Assembly: GCF_000092105.1 (NCBI RefSeq)
Contig: NC_014148.1
Span: 5,070,001-5,102,000, forward strand
DNA from: Planctopirus limnophila DSM 3776
GTDB lineage: Bacteria; Planctomycetota; Planctomycetia; Planctomycetales; Planctomycetaceae
DNA length: 32,000 bases
Direction: 5' to 3'
In this document: positions 6,065 to 21,350 of the stretch, piece after piece
How the letters are laid out: the number at the start of each line of letters is the position of its first letter
Position numbering within the stretch: the stretch's first letter is position 1
The notes under the pieces: model-generated
The model's database searches: none
Told to the model about the DNA's origin: nothing
Seen by the model: only the letters and a program-made list of their open reading frames with translations
Position numbers and translations under genes: made by a program

Positions 6065-7549
6065 ATGAATCCCGACATCATTCCATTCCCACGACGTGTG
6101 GCTGCTCCTGTCGACAGCTCGATCAGCGTGCTGGTCGTAACGAATGATCCTTCGATCGGCGACCGTCTCGCGGCCGACGTTCAAACAGCAGGCTTCCACC
6201 TGAAGCGCTGTGCGACCGTCGATGCAGCCGTGCAGATTCTGTCGACTGTCCCTTCGGACATCTGTATCGTCGGACCACTTGGCCTTCAGGATTCTGTTGC
6301 CCAACTGGCTGGCCAGATCTCTCAGCGAGGCTGGGCAACTCAGTTGCTCCAGGTGGCTTCTCACCCCGGCGAGTTTGCACAGCACTCCACAGTCGCTGGT
6401 GTTGAACACCTGACCTGGCCTGTCAACTCGACAGTCTTCTATCAGCTTGTTTCGGGTGCTGCCCAGCGTGGCCGCCTCAGTTCAGAAAACCGCCGGTTGA
6501 AGCGTCAGATCTCCAATCGAAATCTGCGGGATATGGTGGGCCACAGCCCTGCCATGCAGACCTTCCGCCAGCAGATTCAGCATGCCGCCGAGCAGGCGGG
6601 TTCAGTACTGATTGTGGCTGAACCTGGTGCCGGTGCAACGATTGCTGCTCAATCGATTCATGAAGCCAGCCGTCGTGGTTCCCGCCCCTTCATTCGTGTC
6701 GATTGCCATGTCCTTTCCGTCGAAGCTCTCGAAGTGGAACTCTTCGGTGCACCCTGCCCACCACAAGAAGATGGTCGCCAGCACCTGCCGGGCCGCATTC
6801 ATCAGGCCGAAGGCGGGACAATTTACCTCGACGGGATTGATAACCTTGCCATACCTGCTCAGCGACGATTGCTGAACCTCGTACGCCAGCAAAGACGCGA
6901 GCACCCGATCACTGGCGAACCCATTCGGGCCGATGTGCGGATCATGGCCTCGACTTCCATCCGGTTGACACAACTCGTCAGCCGCAATCTCTTCCGGGCT
7001 GATCTGGCGGAAGCTCTGCAGGATTATGTTGTCGAAGTTCCCGCTCTGCGTGAACGACCCGAAGATATTGCCACACTCGCTGAACACTTCCTGCATCGTG
7101 TTTCGGTTCGCGAAGGCCGTCCCCCACGCATGCTGACTGTCGAAGCTCTCGATCGATTGCGTCAGTGGAAGTGGCCCGGCAACATCCGTGAACTCGAAAA
7201 CGTGATTGACCGAGCCTGTTCAATCGACTGCAGCCACAAGCTCACTGCTGAAATGATCGAGCCCTGGATTCAAAAACCACTGGCCCAGGAAGAAGAAGAT
7301 ATCGTGCCCGGCCTGACTCTGGCCGAAATGGAACGCAAGCTCATCGAATCGACCTTCACCCGCTTTGAAGGAAATCGCGAAAAGACAGCTCGTGCTCTCC
7401 AGATCGGCATTCGCACACTCTCAGGCAAGCTCCGCGAGTATGGCTACCCACCACGAGGAGGGCCCGGCTCAAACCGCATTGCAGCACCGGCAGAGACAGT
7501 CGAAACTGTCGAGCCGATGATCAGCACGTTCGAAACCCGTGCTGCCTGA
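6065..7549 (+). CDS. Sigma-54-type enhancer-binding protein (pseudo-receiver + AAA+ + Fis-type HTH) with degenerate catalytic motifs
   Basis: Conserved blocks: GHSPAMQ, ELFG, VRIMASTS, FRADL, PALRERPEDI, WPGNIRELENVIDRA and the C-terminal HTH NREKTARALQIGIRTLSGKLREYG. Walker A, Walker B and GAFTGA are altered (see findings). Confidence 0.85.
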   Translation: MNPDIIPFPRRVAAPVDSSISVLVVTNDPSIGDRLAADVQTAGFHLKRCATVDAAVQILSTVPSDICIVGPLGLQDSVAQLAGQISQRGWATQLLQVASHPGEFAQHSTVAGVEHLTWPVNSTVFYQLVSGAAQRGRLSSENRRLKRQISNRNLRDMVGHSPAMQTFRQQIQHAAEQAGSVLIVAEPGAGATIAAQSIHEASRRGSRPFIRVDCHVLSVEALEVELFGAPCPPQEDGRQHLPGRIHQAEGGTIYLDGIDNLAIPAQRRLLNLVRQQRREHPITGEPIRADVRIMASTSIRLTQLVSRNLFRADLAEALQDYVVEVPALRERPEDIATLAEHFLHRVSVREGRPPRMLTVEALDRLRQWKWPGNIRELENVIDRACSIDCSHKLTAEMIEPWIQKPLAQEEEDIVPGLTLAEMERKLIESTFTRFEGNREKTARALQIGIRTLSGKLREYGYPPRGGPGSNRIAAPAETVETVEPMISTFETRAA

Positions 7550-7562
7550 TACAGACTTCACC

Positions 7563-7604
7563 ATACGCCATACCCGTTCGCCGGGTATGGCGTATTGGTG
7601 TTTT
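7563..7604 (+). terminator. Rho-independent terminator after the EBP gene
   Basis: A 14-bp perfect stem atacgccatacccg (7563-7576) / cgggtatggcgtat (7582-7595) with a 5-nt loop, followed by tggtgtttt. Confidence 0.8.
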
Positions 7605-7706
7605 GATGGTGGTTGAATTTCCTCTCCGGCTTCTACCCTTCTCCCCCTTTTTCCCTTCCCCCCTTTTTGAACTCTCCCTTCTCAGCTTCATACTGAGGCA
7701 AGTTCC

Positions 7707-8183
7707 ATGTTCAATCACCTGCTCACATCACAAACGTCAAACCTGCTCAAACAAACAGCCAAGTTTGCAGAACTCAGGCAGGATGTCCTCGCAGGAAACG
7801 TGGCCAATATCGATACTCCCGGCTATCGCATGCGCGACCTGCCTGTAGCCGACTTTCAGAATGCACTCAAAAAAGCTTATGAATCACAGACAGCACAGCC
7901 AGCCAGTCTGCATCCGCCTTTAGCAAATCCTGAAAATCCTTTAACCGATCTCATCTCACCTTCAGCCACATCAGTTCACACGACAAACTTCTTTCCTGAG
8001 TCTCTCTTCCAGGCCAGCGAAAAGAAAACCCAGCCGGGTATTACCTTTCAGGATGCGAACAATCGCAGCATCGAACAGCAGATGACACAGATCTCCAAGA
8101 ACTCGATGTTGCAAAGTTTTGCGACTGAATTATTGAATCTGCAGTATAACCAGCTTCAATCAGTCATCAGCGAACAGGTCTAA
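7707..8183 (+). CDS. flgB: Flagellar basal-body rod protein FlgB
   Basis: The N-terminal LRQDVLAGNVANIDTPGYRMRDL rod-protein signature. Its position is immediately upstream of flgC. Confidence 0.9.
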   Translation: MFNHLLTSQTSNLLKQTAKFAELRQDVLAGNVANIDTPGYRMRDLPVADFQNALKKAYESQTAQPASLHPPLANPENPLTDLISPSATSVHTTNFFPESLFQASEKKTQPGITFQDANNRSIEQQMTQISKNSMLQSFATELLNLQYNQLQSVISEQV

Positions 8184-8189
8184 TATATC

Positions 8190-8603
8190 ATGTTCCATAC
8201 TCTTGATATCAGTACCAGTGGTTTAATTGCCCAGCGAACTCGGATGGATACGATTGCTGGCAATATCGCTAACGTGAATACGACACAGAATGAAGAGGGG
8301 AAAATTGCTCCTTTTCAAAGACGGCTCGTTATGATGCAACCAGCCTCCGTTGGAGCGACCAGCCCCACTGGCAGCCAGGGAGTGGCATCAACGGTCGAGA
8401 TTGATACCGTCTCGCCGCCGCGGATGGCCTATGAACCAGGTCATCCCCATGCCAATGCGGAGGGAAAAGTCCTTTATCCGAACATCAACGTCGTGACAGA
8501 ATTCGTAAACGCCATGGAAGCCAGCCGCGCTTATGAAGCCAACGTCACGACGATGGAAGTCACCAAAGATATGATCCAGAACACCTTTCGATTATTAGGT
8601 TAA
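8190..8603 (+). CDS. flgC: Flagellar basal-body rod protein FlgC
   Basis: LDISTSGLIAQRTRMDTIAGNIANVNTT...YEPGHPHANAEGKVLYPNINVVTEFVNAMEASRAYEANV. Confidence 0.92.
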   Translation: MFHTLDISTSGLIAQRTRMDTIAGNIANVNTTQNEEGKIAPFQRRLVMMQPASVGATSPTGSQGVASTVEIDTVSPPRMAYEPGHPHANAEGKVLYPNINVVTEFVNAMEASRAYEANVTTMEVTKDMIQNTFRLLG

Positions 8604-8630
8604 TAGATAGACCTGCATTGCATTTTGTAG

Positions 8631-8696
8631 GGTGCATGCTAATGCACCAATTTGCATGAATTTAAACTGGTGCATTCCGTAAGAACTCCATGCACC
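8631..8696. promoter_or_regulatory. Two hairpins/palindromes built from the same 7-mer (GGTGCAT/ATGCACC) in the flgC-fliE spacer
   Basis: GGTGCAT(8631-8637)-gcta-ATGCACC(8642-8648), and GGTGCAT(8669-8675)-14 nt-ATGCACC(8690-8696). Extra TGCAT copies occur at 8614, 8619 and 8653. Confidence 0.5.
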
Positions 8697-8744
8697 CAAC
8701 AGGCCGTTTTGGATATTGGTGAAATGAATTGTAGGTAAACGTCT

Positions 8745-9080
8745 ATGTCAAACATGATCTCACAGCCGGCGTTTTTTCCTGCTCCCGGGCAGGCCGTCCC
8801 ATTTACGGCCTGGTCGCAGCCACTGGCACTTCCAGAATCGGTTCCAAACACTCAACCCACGGTCTCTTTCGCGGATTTATTGAGCCAGTCGTTGGATGCC
8901 ACCAACGGCCAGCAACAACAGATGCATTCCCAGATTGCCGGAAGTTTGACAGGCTCTGACTTGTCGATGGTGGAAACCTTTTCAGCAGCTCGGGAAGCCG
9001 ATCTGGCATTGAAACTGACTTTGCAAATTCGCAATAAACTGATTGAGGCCTATCGCGAAATTCAAAACATGCAGCTTTAG
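8745..9080 (+). CDS. fliE: Flagellar hook-basal body complex protein FliE
   Basis: SFADLLSQSLDATNGQQQQ...DLSMVETFSAAREADLALKLTLQIRNKLIEAYREIQNMQL is the typical FliE C-terminal pattern. Size is about 110 aa. Confidence 0.85.
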   Translation: MSNMISQPAFFPAPGQAVPFTAWSQPLALPESVPNTQPTVSFADLLSQSLDATNGQQQQMHSQIAGSLTGSDLSMVETFSAAREADLALKLTLQIRNKLIEAYREIQNMQL

Positions 9081-9170
9081 TACTGCATTCATAATGAGTG
9101 GTTTACAGTTTTCTCAATAGCTACCGGATTCCAGAGAGTTTCCGAAATCTCGCATCAGGAGCATCGCCTT

Positions 9171-9587
9171 GTGAAGCGGTTGGTCACGACAATTTCGACA
9201 ATTACTCTGATTCTGCTGCTTCTCTATTGGCCGCTGATGTTCTTCCTCACACACCGGCCCGTCGTACCGAAAATTGTACCGCGACTCCCCGATTATGTAC
9301 TGCACTTTACGGGTTACGCCTGTCTGGGATTTCTCTTTGGTGTCAGACATCAGGTTCTCAGACGCGTGACCTGGCAGCGTTTTGCCATCGCCATGCTCAT
9401 CATCGCGTCCTACGCCGCCCTTGATGAACTGACACAACCCTACTTCCGCCGTCAGGCAGATTTCTGGGATTGGGTTGCCGATCTTTCTGGCGCTGTTGTG
9501 GGGTGGTTGATAGGTGTTCTACTTCTATCATGCTTACGCCGCATTCGAGGATATCTGCGCAAACATCCACGACATAGCGATCAATAA
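9171..9587 (+). CDS. VanZ-like family membrane protein
   Basis: Four hydrophobic segments and a LDELTQPYFRRQADFWDWVADLSGAVVG motif (VanZ pattern DE..Q...pgR....D...d..G). GTG start with aggag 9 nt upstream. Confidence 0.65.
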   Translation: MKRLVTTISTITLILLLLYWPLMFFLTHRPVVPKIVPRLPDYVLHFTGYACLGFLFGVRHQVLRRVTWQRFAIAMLIIASYAALDELTQPYFRRQADFWDWVADLSGAVVGWLIGVLLLSCLRRIRGYLRKHPRHSDQ

Positions 9588-10023
9588 ATTGTGATCTCAA
9601 ACGATACTACCGTAGATCTTCACGGCGATTCGTTTCCCCTATCAGCGAGATAACTGCCAAAACCTGCAGATGGCAATTTCTGCCGATCTTTTCACGATTC
9701 AAACACTATAGAACGCGTTGTTTCACACAGAAAAATGACATGTCGTGAATTTACGCTCAAGTTTTTAGTGGAATATCGGAAAAAAATAAAAACAAGCCAT
9801 TTTCGTATGATGCACCGGCACAAATCGTCCGATGCCAAATGATGAACGAATACACCAATTCCATTGCGGGCGCATGGACTGAGCCACGATTCGCGGAATC
9901 AGCTCAGACGAAACCATACGACTGGTTTCGATTCGTTCTTGGTGATCGTGGGGAATGACTGTCCACTCTTTGGGGCAGGAGTTTCGCCCGCGTTGGAAAC
10001 TCCTAGCAAAGGGACTTGTCAAA

Positions 10024-12020: not shown

Positions 12021-13790
12021 ATGCGTACCATGGCCATAGGTCAACTTCCCCTCGAACTTGAAGTTCCTCCGTGGGCATTTCTCTCGGCCCGGAAGACTCC
12101 CTGGTGGCTCGAAGTGGAATGCTGGTCTTTAGGGATTCTTTCACTGGCGATGTTGTGTCTCGCTCCCCTGGTCACACCGTTATCAATGGCCGAAGCGACC
12201 GTAGGCCGAGCTGCCCTCGAAATGCTGCTCTCCCAGGAATGGGTCGTTCCTCGTTGTCAGGATGTTCCCGTTCCCCAACTGGCGCCACTTCAAGTCTGGC
12301 TGGTCGCCCTGATTTCCACCGTTCAGGGCCATGTCGATGCCTGGTCGATCAGACTTCCTTCACTGATCGCCTTCTGGCTGACTGGCCAGTTACTTTACGC
12401 CTATTGCCGCCAGTTCATGGGAACAGTCGGCAGTCTGGGTGCCGGCCTGATGTTCCTCACCACCGTCGGCGTTCAAATGCAACTCGGCAGTGGCACCGCA
12501 TTGCCCATCGCTGCGTTTTTCCTGGCGCTGGCACTCTTCAGCTGGCACATTGGCTGGCTGCACGACTGGCCCGATCTGATTCAATGGGTCGTTCCCTACT
12601 TCGCTCTCACACTGGCAATTCTATCCAGTGGATTGTTCCCCGCTCTCGTCTTTGCCAGCAGCCTGACCTGCTACCTGATTCTCCGCCGCAAAGAAGAGTA
12701 CGCCCTCACATTCGGGCATCTGGCTGGTCTCCTGGGCTGCATCGGGCTGACAGCTTCCTGGGTGCTGACCTACCTTTCAATCACAGGCATTAATCCCTGG
12801 TGGGCGGGGGCTTCTCCCTTGGGAACTGCCAACCCGTTATGGTCGCTGGTCGAGCACCTCGTGACATTCCCGCTCCTGGTGGCCTGCACCATCTTGTTGC
12901 CATGGGGTCTGTTACTCGTGGTCTATCTCTTTGCCGACTTCCGCCGCCATCTGGGCGACGCCCGCCCCGCCGTCCAGTTCATCAGTGTCTGCCTGCTGAT
13001 CCCCGGGGCACTCATGTGGGTTGATCCCCGCTGCACACCCTCCGCAGCACTCCTCCTTCTCCCTGGAATCACAGTATTGACCGCCATCGTTGTGCAGCGA
13101 TCGGTCGAATGTTTTCCCACGAGTGACTGGCAGTTCATCTGGCCCACATTCCTGCAGGGAACAGTCATCGTCAGCTTCGTCGGCATGGGACTCGCCATGG
13201 CACTTCGAGGAGTCCTCCCCGAAAAAACGGCCCATATCCCGTGGGAAACACTCGTCTGGTCAACCATCGCCATGGTATGTCTCTCGATCGTCATCATGCG
13301 GTCACTCGGTCGGCATCCTCATCAGGGATTATGGGCCATGGGAGCCACCGCACTCCTGATGACTCTCTCGATTGCACCACCCATCCGCGCCAGTCTGGTG
13401 CCGGCACCCTTAGCCACCGCCCCACCACTTGTCATTCCCAGGCCACTCGCGGGCCAGATGCCGGAGATCAGCCTGGGTTCCATCCGAGCTGACGTCCTGC
13501 TCAAGTTCAACCAGCTTCTGCCCCGGCAGCCCTGGCCCGAAGACCACGAGACACTCGATCTCCGGCATCACGTCTTCTGCTTCATGGAAAGCGAACACCA
13601 AAGCCGGCGACTCCCCTTTTCATGGAAGCTCATCTCACGCCAGCCGGTCGCTCCGACTCCCGAATTTCCGCAGAAACAATGGCTGGTGTTAGGCCGCCGG
13701 GCCGATTTCGTCACCCCTGCCAGTTTTCTGGCAGAACCAGGTGCAGTTATGCCGCAAACCTCACGCCCATCAGAATTTGGCACCCGGTAA
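12021..13790 (+). CDS. Polytopic membrane protein, probable GT-C fold glycosyltransferase (GT39/ArnT/PMT-like)
   Basis: More than 10 hydrophobic segments. The N-terminal loop AEATVGRAALEMLLSQEWVVPRCQDVPVPQLAPLQVWLVA resembles the ArnT/PMT_2 motif (DEa.ya..a.em...g.w.vP...g.p...kPPL..Wl.a). The start is uncertain. Confidence 0.55.
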   Translation: MRTMAIGQLPLELEVPPWAFLSARKTPWWLEVECWSLGILSLAMLCLAPLVTPLSMAEATVGRAALEMLLSQEWVVPRCQDVPVPQLAPLQVWLVALISTVQGHVDAWSIRLPSLIAFWLTGQLLYAYCRQFMGTVGSLGAGLMFLTTVGVQMQLGSGTALPIAAFFLALALFSWHIGWLHDWPDLIQWVVPYFALTLAILSSGLFPALVFASSLTCYLILRRKEEYALTFGHLAGLLGCIGLTASWVLTYLSITGINPWWAGASPLGTANPLWSLVEHLVTFPLLVACTILLPWGLLLVVYLFADFRRHLGDARPAVQFISVCLLIPGALMWVDPRCTPSAALLLLPGITVLTAIVVQRSVECFPTSDWQFIWPTFLQGTVIVSFVGMGLAMALRGVLPEKTAHIPWETLVWSTIAMVCLSIVIMRSLGRHPHQGLWAMGATALLMTLSIAPPIRASLVPAPLATAPPLVIPRPLAGQMPEISLGSIRADVLLKFNQLLPRQPWPEDHETLDLRHHVFCFMESEHQSRRLPFSWKLISRQPVAPTPEFPQKQWLVLGRRADFVTPASFLAEPGAVMPQTSRPSEFGTR

Positions 13791-13938
13791 AAGGTTCAGA
13801 CGCACGGAGGCCCAGTCCGGCAGGCTGGCAATCCTCCGCCGGACTTGCAAAATTCCCCCCCGGCTGCGATAACCCATGAGTCTCCAAAGCCCGCAGACAT
13901 CATGAAAGTGATGGCCTGGCAGGCTTTGCCAAAGACAT

Positions 13939-14013
<75 letters not shown>

Positions 14014-14037
14014 TTCGCCTGCGGCGAATAGAGAGTC

Positions 14038-14109
14038 GAGGGTAGAAAGTGGAGAGTAGAATGAGAAGGGTCGCACTCGACTCGGTCTACTCACTACTTT
14101 CTACTCTCC
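14038..14109. repeat. Long imperfect inverted repeat built from ~14-nt GGAGAGTAGAAAGT-like units, directly 3' of the tRNA
   Basis: Arm 14038-14064 (gagggtagaaagtggagagtagaatga) versus the reverse complement of 14082-14109 (ggagagtagaaagtagtgagtagaccga) gives 22 of 27 matches by hand alignment. Each arm is itself a tandem duplication of the unit. Confidence 0.7.
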
Positions 14110-14125
14110 TTCTTGGATTGCGTGC

Positions 14126-14439
14126 ATGACATTTGCCTTTGAAAAACTGCTCGTTTATCAGAAGGCCGACGCAATCTGCCAGCAGACTGAGAGCTTTCCA
14201 AGAAGTCGAAAGCTGATGCCCAGGATCGAGCCGAGTTCCCGTTGCTGGTCTATATTCTGCGTCGTCCCCTCGATGATCATCGACACGCTCGACACTACCA
14301 AACGAAAGTTAGGTAGTGGAAGAACTTCCAAGGGTGATGGCCGAGACGGATAAGGAGTTGTTTCGTTGTTGGGTTGAAGGGACTCCTCGACAAACTGTCA
14401 GCACGACTGGATGCGGGAGCAGGAACGAAGGCCGTATAA
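14126..14439 (+). pseudogene. Frameshifted four-helix-bundle protein gene (23S rRNA IVS protein / Avd-like family)
   Basis: The N-terminus FAFEKLLVYQKADAICQQTESFP matches the family start (fe.L.vyqka..l...i...t..FP). The expected Q..RAa.Si..NiaEG block is missing. Helix-like fragments continue in the other two frames (..AEFPLLVYILRRPLDD.., ..LKGLLDKLSARLDAG..). Confidence 0.5.
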
Positions 14440-14454
14440 GGTTGCAAAATTTGG

Positions 14455-14492
14455 AAACCCCACGACTGGCTTGGTGCTGGTCGTGGGGTTTT
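14455..14492. terminator. Hairpin terminator between the pseudogene (+) and membrane-protein gene A (-)
   Basis: Stem aaaccccacgac (14455-14466) / gtcgtggggttt (14480-14491) with a 13-nt loop and T-rich flanks on both strands. Confidence 0.65.
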
Positions 14493-14514
14493 CCTGCACC
14501 AGAATTGACGCCAC

Positions 14515-15249
14515 TCAAAGAAAAACAGACCAAATAAGCGAAACGATCCCGAACACAATTGGGATCACCACACTCGAAATCAAAATCCATCGCCAATTGT
14601 CTGCTGTTTGATGTCGTTTGAGTCCATCATTGATTGCGAAAACTCCCGGCGGAAACCATAAATCACGCAAATGATTCAGGAGAAAGCCAGCAAGAAATGG
14701 AGTCACAATCAAGGCGATAGCCAATAAGTTTGCAAACGCCTGCATTTTCGTGGATTCGACTGGTTTTCTATCTGGCATGAACCCAGCAACCAGAACGAAA
14801 CATGTCAATATAAACAGAACAAATGTTGCACAGAGTATCGAAACCGCATCAATTCTTGTTAGACGGTCGTACCACGGCCTAAGGCCATCCAGCGATTCTT
14901 CAATTCGCTCACGATAACGAGTTAAAACTTCATCGCTACCACGTATCTGAATGCTTATCGGAGACATCAATCCCATCCATGTCTTTCTTCTGAAGGACAG
15001 CGACACATGCTTTTCTTGATCGCCCTTGGAAGATAATCTCAGCAGGTTAATCTGCTTGGATGCAGAATTCTGGTATTCCAGCAATTGCTTGACAGTCGGT
15101 TCACGATCAACACCGTCTTCACATTCAATTAGAACTTCAACATCTTCGCTGTATGACTTAATGATTTCACAAAATGCCTTAATGTCCTTCTCGGTCAGAA
15201 CAAAAGACCTGTTGATTCCATTTGTATATGAAGCTGGTGCTCGGCTCAT
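14515..15249 (-). CDS. Hypothetical protein A: ~135-aa cytoplasmic-looking N-domain plus three C-terminal TM helices
   Basis: 244-aa ORF in low-G+C DNA. Hydrophobic segments AVSILCATFVLFILTCFVLVAGF, FANLLAIALIVTPFLAGFLL and WILISSVVIPIVFGIVSLIWSVF. I recognise no family. Confidence 0.6.
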   Translation of the reverse strand: MSRAPASYTNGINRSFVLTEKDIKAFCEIIKSYSEDVEVLIECEDGVDREPTVKQLLEYQNSASKQINLLRLSSKGDQEKHVSLSFRRKTWMGLMSPISIQIRGSDEVLTRYRERIEESLDGLRPWYDRLTRIDAVSILCATFVLFILTCFVLVAGFMPDRKPVESTKMQAFANLLAIALIVTPFLAGFLLNHLRDLWFPPGVFAINDGLKRHQTADNWRWILISSVVIPIVFGIVSLIWSVFL

Positions 15250-15356
15250 GTTCTATGCTGAACCATTTCCTAATGACTGAAGGGAAAGACAGGATATTTT
15301 TCACCGACCTTGAAGACGCAAATACGCAGCCCTATGTTCAGGTTTTTTGTGCCGAA

Positions 15357-16424
15357 TTAGGGGTTGGGGGTTTCATCTCTTGATGTTTCTTTGTCACTCA
15401 CGGATTGCAGGCGGGGAAGATATAAGCTGTGTACTCCTATTGGTCGTTCTTCGACATTTCCGTTCATCAATACCAAGGGCATGTTTGCATGCCTCTCAAC
15501 AGTCATGCCGTCGTCCGTAGGCGTCGTCCAAGAAAGCTTGGTGTCTATGTCAACAAGTTTGATGTTCTTTCCAAGGGAAACTGTTTGATTTCTTCTCAGG
15601 TCTGTGGAGATGACGATGTCCGCAGATAAGTCGTAGATTCCTGGGGCAAGGGGATTCACGACAAAGATGAATTTGCTCCATTTGTTATCATCAAGCGAAA
15701 CAAACCTTTCTCCCCATGAGATAGAGCGACGGCCATTTGAATCAGGCCATTCAACAGTATGTGGCCTGTACTCGCCCTCTTTGCCCTGTAGGTCAAAGTA
15801 GAAGAACGTAGCACTTTGAGGCATTGCCCCAGGCGGTCTATACCCCATGATATGTCGTGGCTCAAACTTTGTGACACGGATCACACAATCGAAAACCACA
15901 ACGTCTTGAAAATCTTTTCTCTTTTGGATTTGAAAAGTAAAATTTGGCTTGTCATCGTCAACATTCGGACTAATTGGCCCATCAATTGGCTGTTTACCCA
16001 TGTTTAGCGAGTAACCATCTGCAAACGATTTGATAAATTCTTGGTCTTCCTTTGAAACGAATACAGGTGCAGGCTGGCAGTTAAATTTTATCCTAGCGAT
16101 ATTTATGATTGGTTGATTTTGATAGACGACAATGTCAACCGCAAGCATTACAAGTGGGATGCAAACTAAGCATAGGCTTCTCATTTGACGCCATGATTCA
16201 AATTTCCATTCGAAATCGTTTCTGGTGTTCACATAATTGAATAATGCCAGAGCGGATAGAACCAGATATGCAGGCCATCGAAGTGTTGGGCTAGGGAGAT
16301 TTTCAACAAGCTCCTTTGCAAGAAGCATGCTTGAAAGCACGGCCAATGAAAAAACAGCCCATACGGCAACAGGTGTGCCGATAATTTGCGACAACTTGGT
16401 TTCAGGTGATATTTGATCCGTCAT
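15357..16424 (-). CDS. Hypothetical protein B: three N-terminal TM helices plus a ~270-aa beta-rich C-domain
   Basis: The track ORF 15357..17024 is trimmed to ATG (cat 16422-16424), giving MTDQISPE..., because the upstream part is antisense to a recognisable TerS gene. An alternative start is MRSLCLV at 16184. I recognise no family. Confidence 0.55.
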   Translation of the reverse strand: MTDQISPETKLSQIIGTPVAVWAVFSLAVLSSMLLAKELVENLPSPTLRWPAYLVLSALALFNYVNTRNDFEWKFESWRQMRSLCLVCIPLVMLAVDIVVYQNQPIINIARIKFNCQPAPVFVSKEDQEFIKSFADGYSLNMGKQPIDGPISPNVDDDKPNFTFQIQKRKDFQDVVVFDCVIRVTKFEPRHIMGYRPPGAMPQSATFFYFDLQGKEGEYRPHTVEWPDSNGRRSISWGERFVSLDDNKWSKFIFVVNPLAPGIYDLSADIVISTDLRRNQTVSLGKNIKLVDIDTKLSWTTPTDDGMTVERHANMPLVLMNGNVEERPIGVHSLYLPRLQSVSDKETSRDETPNP

Positions 16425-16454
16425 TTCTGATCCAACCAAAGCATATCTACTTGC

Positions 16455-16925
16455 ATGGCTCGTGGAAGAATCCCCAAACCCAAACAACTGAACGATCTCA
16501 AGGTTGACACGCATAAACGGCGTCGTCATCAGGCTGAGCCTGTGCCTCTCAAAGATCATACCACTTGTCCCGAACACTTGAACGATGTGGCACGGGACAA
16601 GTGGACAGAGATTACCACACTTCTTGATCAAATGGGACTGCTTTCCTCGGCGGATTCTGATGCCCTGGAACTGTACTGTGCGGCGTACTCTCGATACCGC
16701 AAAGTCGAAGAAATGGTGAAGAATTTCGGGGAAGCGATCATCAGCCCCGTGAACAAGTACCCGATGATTTCTCCATACTCCACGGTGATGAACAAAAACC
16801 TCGAAACCTGTCGAAGGTTGCTGATTGAATTTGGGCTGACGCCAGCGGCTCGTTCTCGCTGTGCGATCACGCCGACCGGCAAGGACAACAGTGGATGGGG
16901 AGAGTTTTTCAAAGTAGCTGGGTAG
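16455..16925 (+). CDS. Phage terminase small subunit, P27 family
   Basis: MARGRIPKPKQL..K..RRRHQAEP....CPEHLNDVARDKWTEITTLLDQMGLLSSADSDALELYCAAYSRYRK...FGLTPAARSR matches the P27-type TerS pattern (P.p...G...kr...EP...P.cP..L...a...W......L...D...L..yc.....ElGLTPasR). This is from memory. Confidence 0.8.
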   Translation: MARGRIPKPKQLNDLKVDTHKRRRHQAEPVPLKDHTTCPEHLNDVARDKWTEITTLLDQMGLLSSADSDALELYCAAYSRYRKVEEMVKNFGEAIISPVNKYPMISPYSTVMNKNLETCRRLLIEFGLTPAARSRCAITPTGKDNSGWGEFFKVAG

Positions 16926-16996
16926 GTGGATCGACGTGAGGTTCATACGTATGATAAATCTTTTGACTTGTTCAACACCAACTAAGGAGGCCATTT

Positions 16997-17902
16997 GTGA
17001 ACCGTCCATTTGATGTCTTCTCAAAACGTATTGTGAAGCTACCTGAAGTCTTTGAATACGACGTACTACCTGACAAGCTACGCAATCAGCTTGTCATTCT
17101 CTTTGACAGAACCATTTTCCGATTAGCCGAGAATCTTAACATTGGCGGTGAGGTGCAGGGGACTATCCGCCATCTTGTTGCCCGCATTGGCGAGGAACAT
17201 GGGCTGAATTCCCTAGATGATTCGTTCGTTCCAGTCTCAGGTAGAGCAAATTCGCCCATTGAGCAACTTAGAAACTGTATTTGGCGAGAAGGTGAGGTCG
17301 GAATTGTTTTGGATGCTGTGGAGTGGCTATGCATTGCCTTCCTGCACTTCGACAGACAATATGAGTTCCTGAAACTAAAATCGTCCACTGAAATTGCCAC
17401 CCTAAACTATCGGTTCCGTGAAAATGGTATCGGTTATGAGTTTAATATTGACGCTAAGAAGATTATTCGTATTGACTCGACTCTTCTCCACCAGTCGTCA
17501 ATTCTTCCCTCTCTGTCGTTGTTAACTGATCCACTCTACTCAACAGCAAATTCTGAGTTTGTCATTGCGTTCGAGGATTACAAGAAGGGTGATTATGACG
17601 ACTGTGCAGTGAAATCATGCTCTGCCTTCGAGAGTACACTCAAAGTTATTTGCACTCGGAAAGGGTGGGCATTCGACCCGAATAAGGATACTTGCAGCAA
17701 ACTGGTCGAGATTGTCGTCAAGAATGGGAATCTCGATTCTTTTTTGACAGAACCGTTCAAGCTGATCGGGAGCATCCGAAACAAATTGAGTGCCGCCCAC
17801 GGAGGCGGGACTTCCCAGCGTGTTGTTACCGAAGAAATGGCTCGATACTGCCTCAATTCAACTGCTTCTGCCATTCTTTACATGGTCGAAGCTACACGCT
17901 GA
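16997..17902 (+). CDS. AbiJ-NTD4-like / HEPN-like protein (resembles the STM4504/CBY_0614 family)
   Basis: The N-terminus FDVFSKRIVKLPEVFEYDVLPDKLRNQLVILF resembles the AbiJ N-terminal domain signature (FSKR...y.YD.lP..LR.Qi..i). The C-terminus has SIRNKLSAAHGGG, which is R-x6-H, the upper limit of the HEPN Rx4-6H motif (R261..H268). GTG start with aaggagg 6 nt upstream. Confidence 0.65.
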   Translation: MNRPFDVFSKRIVKLPEVFEYDVLPDKLRNQLVILFDRTIFRLAENLNIGGEVQGTIRHLVARIGEEHGLNSLDDSFVPVSGRANSPIEQLRNCIWREGEVGIVLDAVEWLCIAFLHFDRQYEFLKLKSSTEIATLNYRFRENGIGYEFNIDAKKIIRIDSTLLHQSSILPSLSLLTDPLYSTANSEFVIAFEDYKKGDYDDCAVKSCSAFESTLKVICTRKGWAFDPNKDTCSKLVEIVVKNGNLDSFLTEPFKLIGSIRNKLSAAHGGGTSQRVVTEEMARYCLNSTASAILYMVEATR

Positions 17903-18206
17903 CAAAATGCCGTTGATTCCACACTAACTAGGATGTGAAACCATCCCAGTCTGCACGGCATGCCATTAGCGTCATTGCAAAATCCACCTTTATCAGCGCA
18001 TTCGCCGAGCGAACAATGTCCGCCGAGTTCCCTTGGAGGAGCGTAATCGTTAGCTGTCCGCATAGTCCGAATGCCTTCCTCGAAAATTCCTGATAGAGTC
18101 CTGTCACTCCGGCTAGAAGTGTAGACTCAAACCCCACCCTCTTTTGCCAACACAACCATCCCCATCGATTCCGTTTTCGCGAAGAAACTGCCTTTTTTTG
18201 CAGCGA

Positions 18207-18289: not shown

Positions 18290-19171
18290 ATGCAAAATCC
18301 CTTCACCGAAGTCCCCGATGAATCGACCGATGCCGACCTCATCGAAGAGGCCCGGCAAGGGAGTCGTGAGGCGCTGGAGAAACTGGTGCTCAGGCATCAG
18401 GCGTGGATCTACAACATCGCCATCCGCATGGTCTTTCACCCTCAGGATGCCGAGGAAGTCACCCAGGAAGTGCTGATCAAGGTCATCACCCGCCTCAGCA
18501 CGTTCCAGGGGGAAAGCCAGTTTCGCACATGGCTCTACCGCATCACAGCCAACCATGTTTTGAATATGAGACGTCGCGGTGCCGAGCGGGAGGTTCATAC
18601 GTTCTCCAGCTACGCCAGCGCGATCAACGCGACGCCGGATCTCGATCTGCCCGACCCGAAGTCGGTTCCCGTCGAAGTGCCGCTCCTCGTTGAAGAGGCG
18701 AAAATCTCCTGCACGATGGGGATGTTGCTCTGCCTCGACCGCCAGCAGCGGCTGATCTTCACGCTCGGCGAAATCCTCGGAGTCACCGACAAGGTCGGCA
18801 GCGACATCCTCGAGATCTCCGCCGACAACTTCCGCCAGTGCCTCTCACGCGCCCGCCGTGATCTTCACCAGTTCATGCACGGCCAATGTGGTCTGGTCAA
18901 TCCCGATAACCCCTGCCGCTGTGCCAAGAAAACCAGAGGTTTCATCGAGGCGGGGCATGTCGATCCCAACCATCTGCAATTTGTCCCCCGGCACGTGCGG
19001 CGTATCTCGGCAGCAGCCGAAGCTCTGGTACTCACCATCGAGCAGACCGTGGATGAACATGACCAGACGATCTTCCGCGAGCATCCTTTTCTCGAACCCA
19101 GGCACCAGCTCGACTGGCTCCGGCGACTGCTCGACAAGGGGGATTTCGGGACTGCCCTCGATCTCAATTAA
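18290..19171 (+). CDS. ECF-type sigma-70 family RNA polymerase sigma factor with a ~110-aa C-terminal Cys/His-containing extension
   Basis: Region 2: ALEKLVLRHQAWIYNIAIRMVFHPQDAEEVTQEVLIKV...FRTWLYRITANHVLNMRR. Region 4: LIFTLGEILGVTDKVGSDILEISADNFRQCLSRARRDL. Extension: HQFMHGQCGLVNPDNPCRCAKK... Confidence 0.85.
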   Translation: MQNPFTEVPDESTDADLIEEARQGSREALEKLVLRHQAWIYNIAIRMVFHPQDAEEVTQEVLIKVITRLSTFQGESQFRTWLYRITANHVLNMRRRGAEREVHTFSSYASAINATPDLDLPDPKSVPVEVPLLVEEAKISCTMGMLLCLDRQQRLIFTLGEILGVTDKVGSDILEISADNFRQCLSRARRDLHQFMHGQCGLVNPDNPCRCAKKTRGFIEAGHVDPNHLQFVPRHVRRISAAAEALVLTIEQTVDEHDQTIFREHPFLEPRHQLDWLRRLLDKGDFGTALDLN

Positions 19172-20423: not shown

Positions 20424-20510
20424 CATTCTGCTTGAATCGCAGAGAGGAAATGCCAGATCATAGAGTTGGGATGGTTATTGCCATCGCGAAGAGAATTGCA
20501 GGGGTGGGAT

Positions 20511-20924
20511 ATGTCAGTCATAAATCGCAAGAAATCAGCAGTCCCAAAACATGTTCCGACCAAGGGGCAGGCAAAGCCCAGGATCAACCGCACATCCTTC
20601 AAGGCTGGTATGGTTTTGGAGCTTCGTCATCGACTGCAACTCAAGCAGGCAGACTTTGCTCGGCTACTTCCGGTTTCAGTGAGATCTCTCGCCACATTAG
20701 AAGGTGGGGCGCCTCCATCCGAAGCTGTCGCCCGTAAGCTTGTCGAAATCCACCGCTTAACCAACGCACTTGCGGAAGTCATCAAAAAGGATTCGCTCGG
20801 CTGGTGGTTACAAACCCCGAACGGGGCTTTTGACGGATTGAAACCCATCGAAGTCATCGACCGCGGGGAAAGCGATCGTATCTGGTCGATGATCTTCTTT
20901 CTCAGGTCTGGAGTCCCTGCATAA
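20511..20924 (+). CDS. Xre-type HTH + DUF2384 (MbcA/ParS-like antitoxin) domain protein
   Basis: HTH LKQADFARLLPVSVRSLATLEGG. C-terminus WWLQTPNGAFDGLKPIEVIDRGESDRIWSMIFFLRSG matches the DUF2384 pattern (WL..pn.algG..Pl.ll.t..G...v...L..i..G). Confidence 0.75.
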   Translation: MSVINRKKSAVPKHVPTKGQAKPRINRTSFKAGMVLELRHRLQLKQADFARLLPVSVRSLATLEGGAPPSEAVARKLVEIHRLTNALAEVIKKDSLGWWLQTPNGAFDGLKPIEVIDRGESDRIWSMIFFLRSGVPA

Positions 20925-21095
20925 GGCATAGCGTTCAAAAGCACGTGCGAGGTTGCCAAGTCCTGTAGGGTGCGGTTAAGGCTTTGCGCAACCCACCAGA
21001 TCTTCTGCGAACTCATTCTCTGTCCCTTTGCCCTACCGATCGCCCCACAGCAAAAGCCCCGTCATCCTCCACCAATATTCCCGAGGAACCCATGC

Positions 21096-21350
21096 ATGGC
21101 TGCGTCTGATCTTTTGCAGATTCCGGGGATTGGTAAGACTTTTGTCCGGGATTTTGCGCGGATTGGGATTCATTCCATCGATCAACTGGTGCAGAAAGAT
21201 CCCGAGCTGCTTTTTCATCAGTTGGCACTCGCCAATCAGGCGGTTGACCATAAAACCAGCAAGAACTATCTCTACGTCATTCGCATGGCCGTCTACTATG
21301 CCAATGGCGGGCGGGATCCTGAGCAGTTGAAATGGCATGCCTGGAAGTGA
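21096..21350 (+). CDS. Helix-hairpin-helix protein, Cdd1 ('pathogenicity locus') family-like
   Basis: LLQIPGIGKTFVRDFARIGIHSIDQLVQKDPELLFHQL...YLYVIRMAVYYANGG. The HhH motif plus the conserved tail are as I recall for PF11731. Confidence 0.55.
   Translation: MAASDLLQIPGIGKTFVRDFARIGIHSIDQLVQKDPELLFHQLALANQAVDHKTSKNYLYVIRMAVYYANGGRDPEQLKWHAWK

Follow-up and report, generated by a model that had tools for sequence, protein, structure and literature searches.

A probable stump of a degraded HK97-type prophage at the tRNA-Pro(GGG) hotspot of Planctopirus limnophila

Directly 3' of the tRNA-Pro(GGG) gene in a 32,000-nucleotide stretch of Planctopirus limnophila DSM 3776 (the window, to which all coordinates without a prefix refer) lies a block of low G+C content, at positions 14022-18153. 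It carries two genes for membrane proteins (A and B), a gene for a small terminase (TerS) and a gene for a HEPN-domain protein of the abortive-infection type (Abi). The original prediction for this locus had read the four genes as one novel defence module. We conclude instead, with a probability of roughly 85%, that the block is the tRNA-proximal stump of a degraded, HK97-type prophage with a P27-family TerS, and not a four-gene system. The main features of the block and its flanks are:

12021-13790: PMT_2/GT-C membrane protein, the upstream flank of the block
13938-14014, plus strand: tRNA-Pro(GGG), from ARAGORN and Rfam (tRNA, 64.1 bits)
14515-15249, minus strand: gene A (Plim_3961), 244 residues, an N-terminal soluble part and three C-terminal transmembrane helices (from hydropathy)
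15357-16424, minus strand: gene B (Plim_3962, corrected start), 355 residues, three N-terminal transmembrane helices and a C-terminal beta-sandwich; divergent from TerS
16455-16925, plus strand: P27-family small terminase, TerS (PF05119, E 3.4e-23; TIGR01558; phrog_83, E 3e-34)
16997-17902, plus strand: Abi, an AbiJ-NTD4 plus AbiJ-type HEPN protein (STM4504/CBY_0614 family), 301 residues, AbiJ_NTD4 and DUF7014/Abi_C
17935-18048, plus strand: 5' stub of the large terminase gene (TerL), about 38 codons, of which the first 14 are well conserved
18112-18148, plus strand: degenerate stretch resembling a tRNA 3' end (local alignment to tRNA positions 13979-14006, score 10)
18153/18154: right junction, the end of the non-homology with P. 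hydrillae
18290-19171: extracytoplasmic function (ECF) sigma factor, the downstream flank of the block, with a short-chain dehydrogenase/reductase gene after it

The comparison that carries this reading is with a 12.3 kb metagenomic contig (L011), on which P0004, the homologue of gene B, is encoded. In the orientation of the window, the contig starts with a host gene, a tRNA-Ala gene and genes for an EndoIII-like protein, a C5 DNA methylase and an HNH protein. The B homologue follows on the opposite strand, and then come TerS (82% identical in amino-acid sequence to that of the window), Abi (69%), TerL, a portal protein and a Peptidase_S78 protease; gene A is absent. The gene order of the window, with B on one strand and TerS, Abi and the TerL stub on the other, is collinear with that of the contig and in the same orientation. 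Because TerS, Abi and the TerL stub line up with the packaging region of L011, the block is read as a prophage stump.

The TerS open reading frame is intact in the window, and the protein lies above the family cut-offs (73.8 bits against 45.6 for TIGR01558, 82.3 bits against 24.7 for PF05119), in agreement with the P27 small terminase that had been predicted on the plus strand; its matches in PADLOC are at noise level only. It resembles the P27 TerS of HK97-like cos phages in its family (TIGR01558/PF05119) and in having relatives with HNH upstream and TerL downstream. Unlike such a phage module, the window has TerL only as a stub and lacks HNH, and TerS is truncated in sister strains.

The open reading frame from 17935 reads VKPSQSARHAISVI, as against VKLSKSAQHAIGFI at the start of the L011 TerL, and at the DNA level the window and L011 are homologous as far as 17975, which is 73 nucleotides beyond the stop codon of Abi. 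The high-scoring segment pair with TerL in tblastn covers residues 1-37 (E 1e-3), and a weaker match, including a PW(Q/R) motif, runs to about codon 38. Extension of the stub past about 18048 was rejected, the 'LPRK' match there having an E-value of only 4.6. Since the L011 TerL start is matched from 17935 on, the window keeps a stub of TerL, the rest of the gene and all beyond it having been deleted. L011 and two further phage contigs described below (L015 and L016) have a full TerL, whereas the window has no adjacent full-length large terminase beside its TerS, only the stub of about 38 codons. With TerL reduced to this stub and HNH absent, the TerS of the window would not be able to package DNA by itself. 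The stub, the sequence downstream of it and the junction are common to the window and to the islands of two other strains (L009 and L014), so that the large deletion predates the split of these strains.

These sister islands, recovered as Logan contigs from two further Planctopirus strains (L009/L010 and L014), sit between the same tRNA-Pro and ECF sigma genes, with flanks 90-94% identical in nucleotide sequence to those of the window. L009/L010 contains the left end, a broken 5' gene, a homologue of A (53% identical) and, in the place of B, an unrelated 328-residue membrane protein; only the first 65 or so codons of TerS are present, fused to the TerL stub, and the 3' half of TerS and Abi are gone. 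L014 has an unrelated soluble protein of 364 residues in the place of A, an allele of the B family 27% identical to B, and a TerS (85% amino-acid identity) with a premature stop at codon 135, the end of which abuts the TerL stub, the Abi gene being absent; its right end has 160 nucleotides extra. In a more distant contig (L012), TerS (69%) is divergent from a B-family gene (23%), which is followed by an unrelated gene. Between the window and L014, the ratio of non-synonymous to synonymous substitutions (dN/dS) of TerS is 0.23, against 0.03-0.10 for the flanking genes of the same pair and 0.12 for phage copies; over all comparisons, including those with L009 and P. hydrillae (L006), the flanks range from 0.03 to 0.16. 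By these ratios and truncations, TerS is in decay wherever strains allow a comparison. When Abi and B are compared with L011, the dN/dS values are uninformative owing to saturation at synonymous sites.

The same loci bear on the proposal that A, B, the TerS-like protein and the HEPN protein form one novel anti-phage or abortive-infection system, retained because its genes cooperate. In its favour, this strain has all four open reading frames unbroken, neither of the membrane proteins A and B falls in a known family, PADLOC has a defence candidate that the Abi protein matches, and the slot of A and B holds defence-type genes in related phages. However, the four genes are found together in none of the four loci L009, L011, L012 and L014: L011 is without A, L009 without B and Abi, L014 without Abi and A, and L012 pairs its B-like gene with an unrelated one. 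TerS is a pseudogene in both L009 and L014, while TerS, Abi and the TerL stub make up a fragment of a phage packaging region. The pairs A/B and TerS/Abi lie on opposite strands and would be transcribed separately. No PADLOC multi-gene model fits; the only match is to the single-gene PDC-S32/AbiJ, with nothing for A or B. This lack of co-occurrence, an outcome that the original prediction had itself named as telling against its module, largely refutes a four-gene system as far as gene content can do so, and we regard such a system as very improbable. Nor is the combination without a named defence match, as had been thought, since the Abi protein is a member of a described family, AbiJ-NTD4/HEPN, and matches PADLOC PDC-S32.

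The block is compositionally foreign. With a G+C content of 0.463, compared with 0.544 in the remainder of the window, it lies below all 79 equal-length segments elsewhere in the window (minimum 0.508; z -5.5). In tetranucleotide L1 distance it stands at 0.339 and the controls at 0.167 +/- 0.013 (z 12.9), so the compositional deviation, first proposed from counted lines, stands when computed. Windowed G+C content runs at 0.41-0.50 across about 14250-18000 and at 0.55-0.60 in both flanks.

Boundaries were also set by comparison, scanning species-representative genomes with the GT-C protein. Two relatives were recovered, P. hydrillae JC280 (L006; GT-C protein 97% identical in amino-acid sequence) and a pond Planctopirus metagenome-assembled genome (L005; 98%). 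DNA homology with P. hydrillae ends at 14021, 7 nucleotides past tRNA-Pro(GGG), and restarts at 18154; with the metagenome-assembled genome it ends at the final base of the tRNA (14013/14014). Between the tRNA-Pro gene and the right junction, P. hydrillae has 2.75 kb without relation to the block (L006 12002-14748; G+C content 0.517 against 0.56 in the flanks), with genes for a 292-residue protein of no assigned family and a 355-residue S-adenosylmethionine methyltransferase matching PADLOC mad2 (MADS; E 2.4e-19). In the metagenome-assembled genome, GH88-like and esterase genes follow the tRNA-Pro gene. The tRNA-Pro sequence is identical in L005, L006 and L014 despite the different content downstream. 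As the cargo at this tRNA-Pro gene differs from species to species, the site is, by this comparison, a multi-cargo hotspot in the genus Planctopirus, with the tRNA gene as integration target on the side of the left attachment site (attL). The low-G+C insertion of some 4 kb directly 3' of the tRNA had thus been recognized correctly, close to the boundaries found here, as had its flanks, the GT-C membrane protein and the ECF sigma factor, both confirmed by family matches.

The comparison of tRNA-Pro loci that had been suggested brought out the differing cargo, but an empty tRNA-Pro/ECF-sigma junction was not found among the relatives compared. This, and the presence of the block in three Planctopirus strains, would also suit an unusually AT-rich segment that belonged to the ancestral chromosome and has since disappeared from P. 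hydrillae and the metagenome-assembled genome, by replacement or loss. Such an origin we hold to be extremely improbable: the tetranucleotide and G+C deviations (z 12.9 and -5.5) speak against it, three genes plus the TerL stub follow the same order as in phage contigs from other organisms, which lie beside different tRNAs, and B alleles are only 23-27% identical against 90-94% nucleotide identity in the flanks.

The phage group can be outlined from two further loci, found by scanning with a TerS profile: a metagenomic prophage (L015, from VFQN01003067.1, 24.7 kb) and an IMG/VR contig (L016, from IMGVR_UViG_3300010052_000172, a viral contig of 35.9 kb). In L015, host genes and a tRNA-Lys gene are followed by a gene of no assigned family, HNH, two genes on the opposite strand, and then TerS, TerL, portal, protease and capsid. 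L016 shares the order HNH, cargo, TerS, TerL, portal, and upstream of these lies a replication gene of the AAA_25 helicase type. The slot of L015 (7672-9971 of that contig) holds a Schlafen AlbA_2 protein and one of no assigned family, and that of L016 (7381-10153 of that contig) a HEPN/RES-NTD1+RES protein and a DAC-like protein, in both cases on the opposite strand. In gene content, the gap between HNH and TerS behaves as a variable cargo hotspot of the phage group, and A and B occupy that slot. In each of three independent contigs (window/L014, L011 and L015), TerS is preceded by a tRNA gene at a distance of 2-6 kb; the packaging end of the phage group appears to adjoin the tRNA, so that one large deletion would suffice to produce the stump. 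A search of phage and plasmid collections with the DNA of the whole block gave no match, and so none to the extrachromosomal prophage of P. limnophila, provided that the collections include it.

In L011, L015 and the window, the packaging module starts only 2-6 kb away from the tRNA, and the interval contains neither a lysogeny nor a replication block. Such an arrangement could also belong to a capsid-forming satellite, similar to the capsid-forming phage-inducible chromosomal islands, or to another satellite with its own HNH, TerS, TerL, portal, protease and capsid genes. Tail genes are on none of the contigs examined, and satellites are known to carry defence hotspots (PMC9122126). On the other hand, the viral contig to which L016 belongs measures 35.9 kb and has the helicase-type replication gene upstream of the shared arrangement, which fits a full-size phage. 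Hallmark satellite genes (int next to the attachment site, alpA, pri-rep) were seen on none of the contigs, which end early, and the contigs also end before tail genes would appear. We consider a satellite origin improbable.

In the reading that we prefer, a temperate HK97-type phage (HNH, P27 TerS, TerL, portal, S78 protease) would have entered the chromosome of an ancestor common to several Planctopirus strains, at the tRNA-Pro(GGG) 3' end. Later, the element beyond roughly codon 40 of TerL, any integrase included, would have been lost in a deletion, which left some 100-180 bp of distal sequence that may contain a decayed right attachment site (attR). The survivors would be three independent pieces: an accessory slot on the opposite strand (B and A), a TerS that would be a packaging relic without its partner, intact in the window and broken in the sister strains, and Abi as a moron. 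The comparisons show the insertion, its phage origin, the synteny, the deletion scar, the families of TerS and Abi and the lack of co-occurrence; all that is said of function is inferred. Like cryptic prophages and islands at tRNA 3' ends, the block lies directly 3' of a tRNA gene, has a foreign composition and contains pseudogenes. Also as in cryptic prophages, a sister species has different cargo at the same tRNA, the packaging genes are collinear with those of an intact relative, and the truncated TerL forms a deletion scar. It differs from them in the absence of an integrase fragment, in the weakness of the attR-like repeat and in the end retained, which is the packaging-module end adjoining the tRNA and not the integrase end.

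The stretch at 18112-18148 resembles the T-arm and acceptor 3' end of the tRNA and stands in the same register in the window, L009 and L014. Against local shuffles of the 103-nucleotide right end, P is about 0.02 for the window, about 0.02 for L009 and 0.08 for L014. This is suggestive only of a decayed attR, and several observations weigh against a prophage stump, of which the first is that the repeat is statistically weak: 19% of 358-nucleotide windows elsewhere score as high. No remnant of an integrase or excisionase was detected in the block or the sister islands by domain scans, or by six-frame reading and PDB phmmer of the right end; as the original prediction of a decayed element without an intact integrase had it, no open reading frame of the block has an integrase domain. 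The position of the integrase is not visible on any contig, and packaging genes rather than the integrase next to the tRNA are the less usual polarity. The contigs stop short of the tail genes, which leaves phage versus capsid-forming satellite unsettled, and, with the empty junction missing among the relatives compared, what the locus looked like ancestrally is a reconstruction. Finally, A and B are intact and their slot is filled in all strains, which fits selection, but also a young deletion.

The Abi protein combines an N-terminal AbiJ-NTD4 domain (PF18863, E 1.4e-15, residues 6-166) with a C-terminal HEPN domain (PF22809, E 1.3e-13; Abi_C, E 2.3e-3, below its cut-off), so that the AbiJ/HEPN-like protein predicted on the plus strand is borne out. 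It scores 166 bits in NCBIfam NF046078 (STM4504/CBY_0614) over residues 21-298, above the curated cut-off of 150, and matches phrog_20794 (E 2e-40) and, over its full length, PADLOC PDC-S32 (E 1.6e-7). The fusion of AbiJ-NTD4 with the HEPN domain of AbiJ was defined with CBY_0614 as its prototype (Anantharaman et al. 2013, PMC3710099). In an alignment of the Abi protein with three homologues, the HEPN motif residues R261, N262, H268 and G269 are invariant; one of the three is a moron that Clostridium phage phiCp-A carries within its head module. The L011 homologue is full length and located between TerS and TerL, and the gene of the window is, from its place, likewise a moron between these two genes. 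The protein resembles the AbiJ-NTD4 HEPN family in its full-length two-domain architecture, its conserved R...H motif, the curated cut-off that it passes and its occurrence as a phage or prophage moron, as in phiCp-A; it differs in being only 28-35% identical to characterisable homologues and in its R-H spacing, R-x6-H. By analogy with the mechanism proposed at family level by Anantharaman et al. 2013 (PMC3710099), it would work alone: the N-terminal domain would sense a phage component, freeing the C-terminal HEPN RNase (R261...H268), and the freed RNase would arrest the infected cell. A literature search found no experimental evidence for the AbiJ-NTD4 subfamily; a solved structure was not found either, and an IMG/VR scan with the single Abi protein found no relatives.

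The two minus-strand multi-transmembrane proteins that had been predicted are both present, but the 555-residue open reading frame given for B is too long, the protein having 355 residues. The longer versions, the 555-residue frame and a 545-residue annotation (15357-17024, minus strand), both overlap TerS antisense. The one close homologue of B, P0004 beside the TerS of L011 (62% identical), has 358 residues, and the start of gene B was therefore placed at the ATG at 16424; the annotated start of Plim_3962 is probably wrong. A search of 1.84 billion representatives added five remote relatives (E 8e-12 to 5e-5), while Pfam, NCBIfam, PADLOC and PHROGs gave no match for B, and neither did an IMG/VR scan with the single protein. 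Its AlphaFold2 model is of moderate quality (predicted local distance difference test, pLDDT, 69; predicted TM-score 0.59). Foldseek searches of PDB and BFVD with it gave no significant fold match, the best (E 2e-3) being generic Ig-like or beta-sandwich folds. A Kir-channel-like fold was rejected on TM-scores of 0.15-0.2.

Gene A has a single homologue, P0002 (53% identical), among 5.8 billion proteins, in both single-sequence and profile searches. Neither Pfam, NCBIfam nor PADLOC matched it, and its sole PHROG match is weak (phrog_26340, E 0.0097, no function assigned). Its AlphaFold2 model (pLDDT 49.5) was unusable and was left out of the fold search. Over its C-terminal 41 residues (F204-L244; window 14515-14640), A differs from the L009 homologue at one position, the remainder of the protein being about 45% identical, which suggests a mosaic or a recombination breakpoint inside the gene.

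The argument for A and B as conflict genes is one of guilt by association, and the sole one: they lie in a slot that holds conflict genes in relatives. Judged by position and topology only, A and B would most likely encode membrane proteins that the prophage expresses for superinfection exclusion or for abortive infection; they are candidate anti-phage genes by their place and membrane character. Variable-cargo defence hotspots are described for P2/P4 phages and satellites (Rousset et al. 2022, PMC9122126). The HNH-TerS slot is like them in its fixed position between core genes, in variable cargo transcribed against the late genes, in its conflict domains (Schlafen AlbA_2, HEPN/RES-NTD1+RES, DAC-like) and in alleles that turn over much faster than the flanks. 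Unlike them, it belongs to a planctomycete HK97-type lineage, is a different slot and is known from about seven loci by gene content alone; and A and B match no known defence family. It would go further to see in the HNH-TerS gap a dedicated anti-phage slot and in the B family with its swapped partners (such as A) a new membrane module for superinfection exclusion or abortive infection, kept by Planctopirus with replacement of cassettes after the prophage was deleted. We think this unlikely. If true, a B-family module of three transmembrane helices and a cytoplasmic or periplasmic beta-sandwich would be at work in a so far undescribed planctomycete temperate-phage group.

An apparent novel four-gene defence island is in this way replaced by a prophage stump that accounts well for the locus, at a tRNA hotspot, which saves follow-up effort, and the annotation of Plim_3962 is corrected. 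The loci also provide a first sketch of a tRNA-targeting group of planctomycete temperate phages with a variable cargo slot, for which the layout would be HNH - cargo slot - P27 TerS - (AbiJ moron) - TerL - portal - S78 protease - capsid. Three candidates can be tested separately, the AbiJ-NTD4/HEPN gene alone, B alone and B with A, and genetic tools exist for P. limnophila (PMC11958385). The remaining interest is in the cargo slot and the B family.

The left end of the block, between the tRNA and gene A, contains three further features:

14038-14108: imperfect 28-nucleotide inverted repeat (hairpin) just inside the left junction, from a repeat search; folding energy -51.2 kcal/mol, z -4.96
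14126-14447, plus strand: composite pseudogene, frameshifted and internally deleted
14455-14491: hairpin with a perfect 12-bp stem, downstream of gene A and nearly invariant in L009, L010 and L014

The sequence at 14009-14105 is 99% identical to L009/L010, as compared with about 83% for the adjoining sequence. In L014 (about 7290-7380 of that contig) the inverted repeat is retained with different arms and a loop 46 nucleotides longer. An Rfam scan found no family for this hairpin, only the tRNA being matched. The pseudogene consists of a 5' fragment followed by the C-terminal 55 or so codons of a protein that is intact in L014 (178 residues); alignments show indels of -1 and -8 nucleotides with respect to L009/L010 and about 370 nucleotides missing with respect to L014. 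Of the frameshifted four-helix-bundle gene predicted at 14126-14353, the broken frame is upheld by these indels, but membership of the family of four-helix-bundle 23S rRNA intervening-sequence proteins was not confirmed for so short and broken a fragment: the 5' part has no match in Pfam, NCBIfam or PHROG (E <= 0.01), and PDB phmmer gave a chance match only. The hairpin at 14455-14491 is probably a terminator. In a promoter and terminator scan of the block, sites were no more numerous than in shuffles.

Elsewhere in the window, a milder low-G+C patch at 7500-10000 (0.47-0.49) contains core flagellar genes (flgB, flgC and fliE, with a VanZ-like gene, at 7707-9587), so that a G+C content below 0.5 is by itself not diagnostic of foreign DNA. 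Near the right junction, an independent assembly of identical sequence (L004, SRR4046663) has its position 1 at window 18149, 5 nucleotides from the junction; this could be chance or heterogeneity of the junction in that sample. Downstream of a DUF1330 gene, at 20466-20924 on the plus strand, is an antitoxin-like gene (HTH_31 and an Xre/MbcA/ParS C-terminal domain), which may be part of a toxin-antitoxin pair; the next open reading frame is at 20970-21350. Near this gene, P. hydrillae is about 1.65 kb longer than the window (window 20342/20356 against L006 16936/18592).

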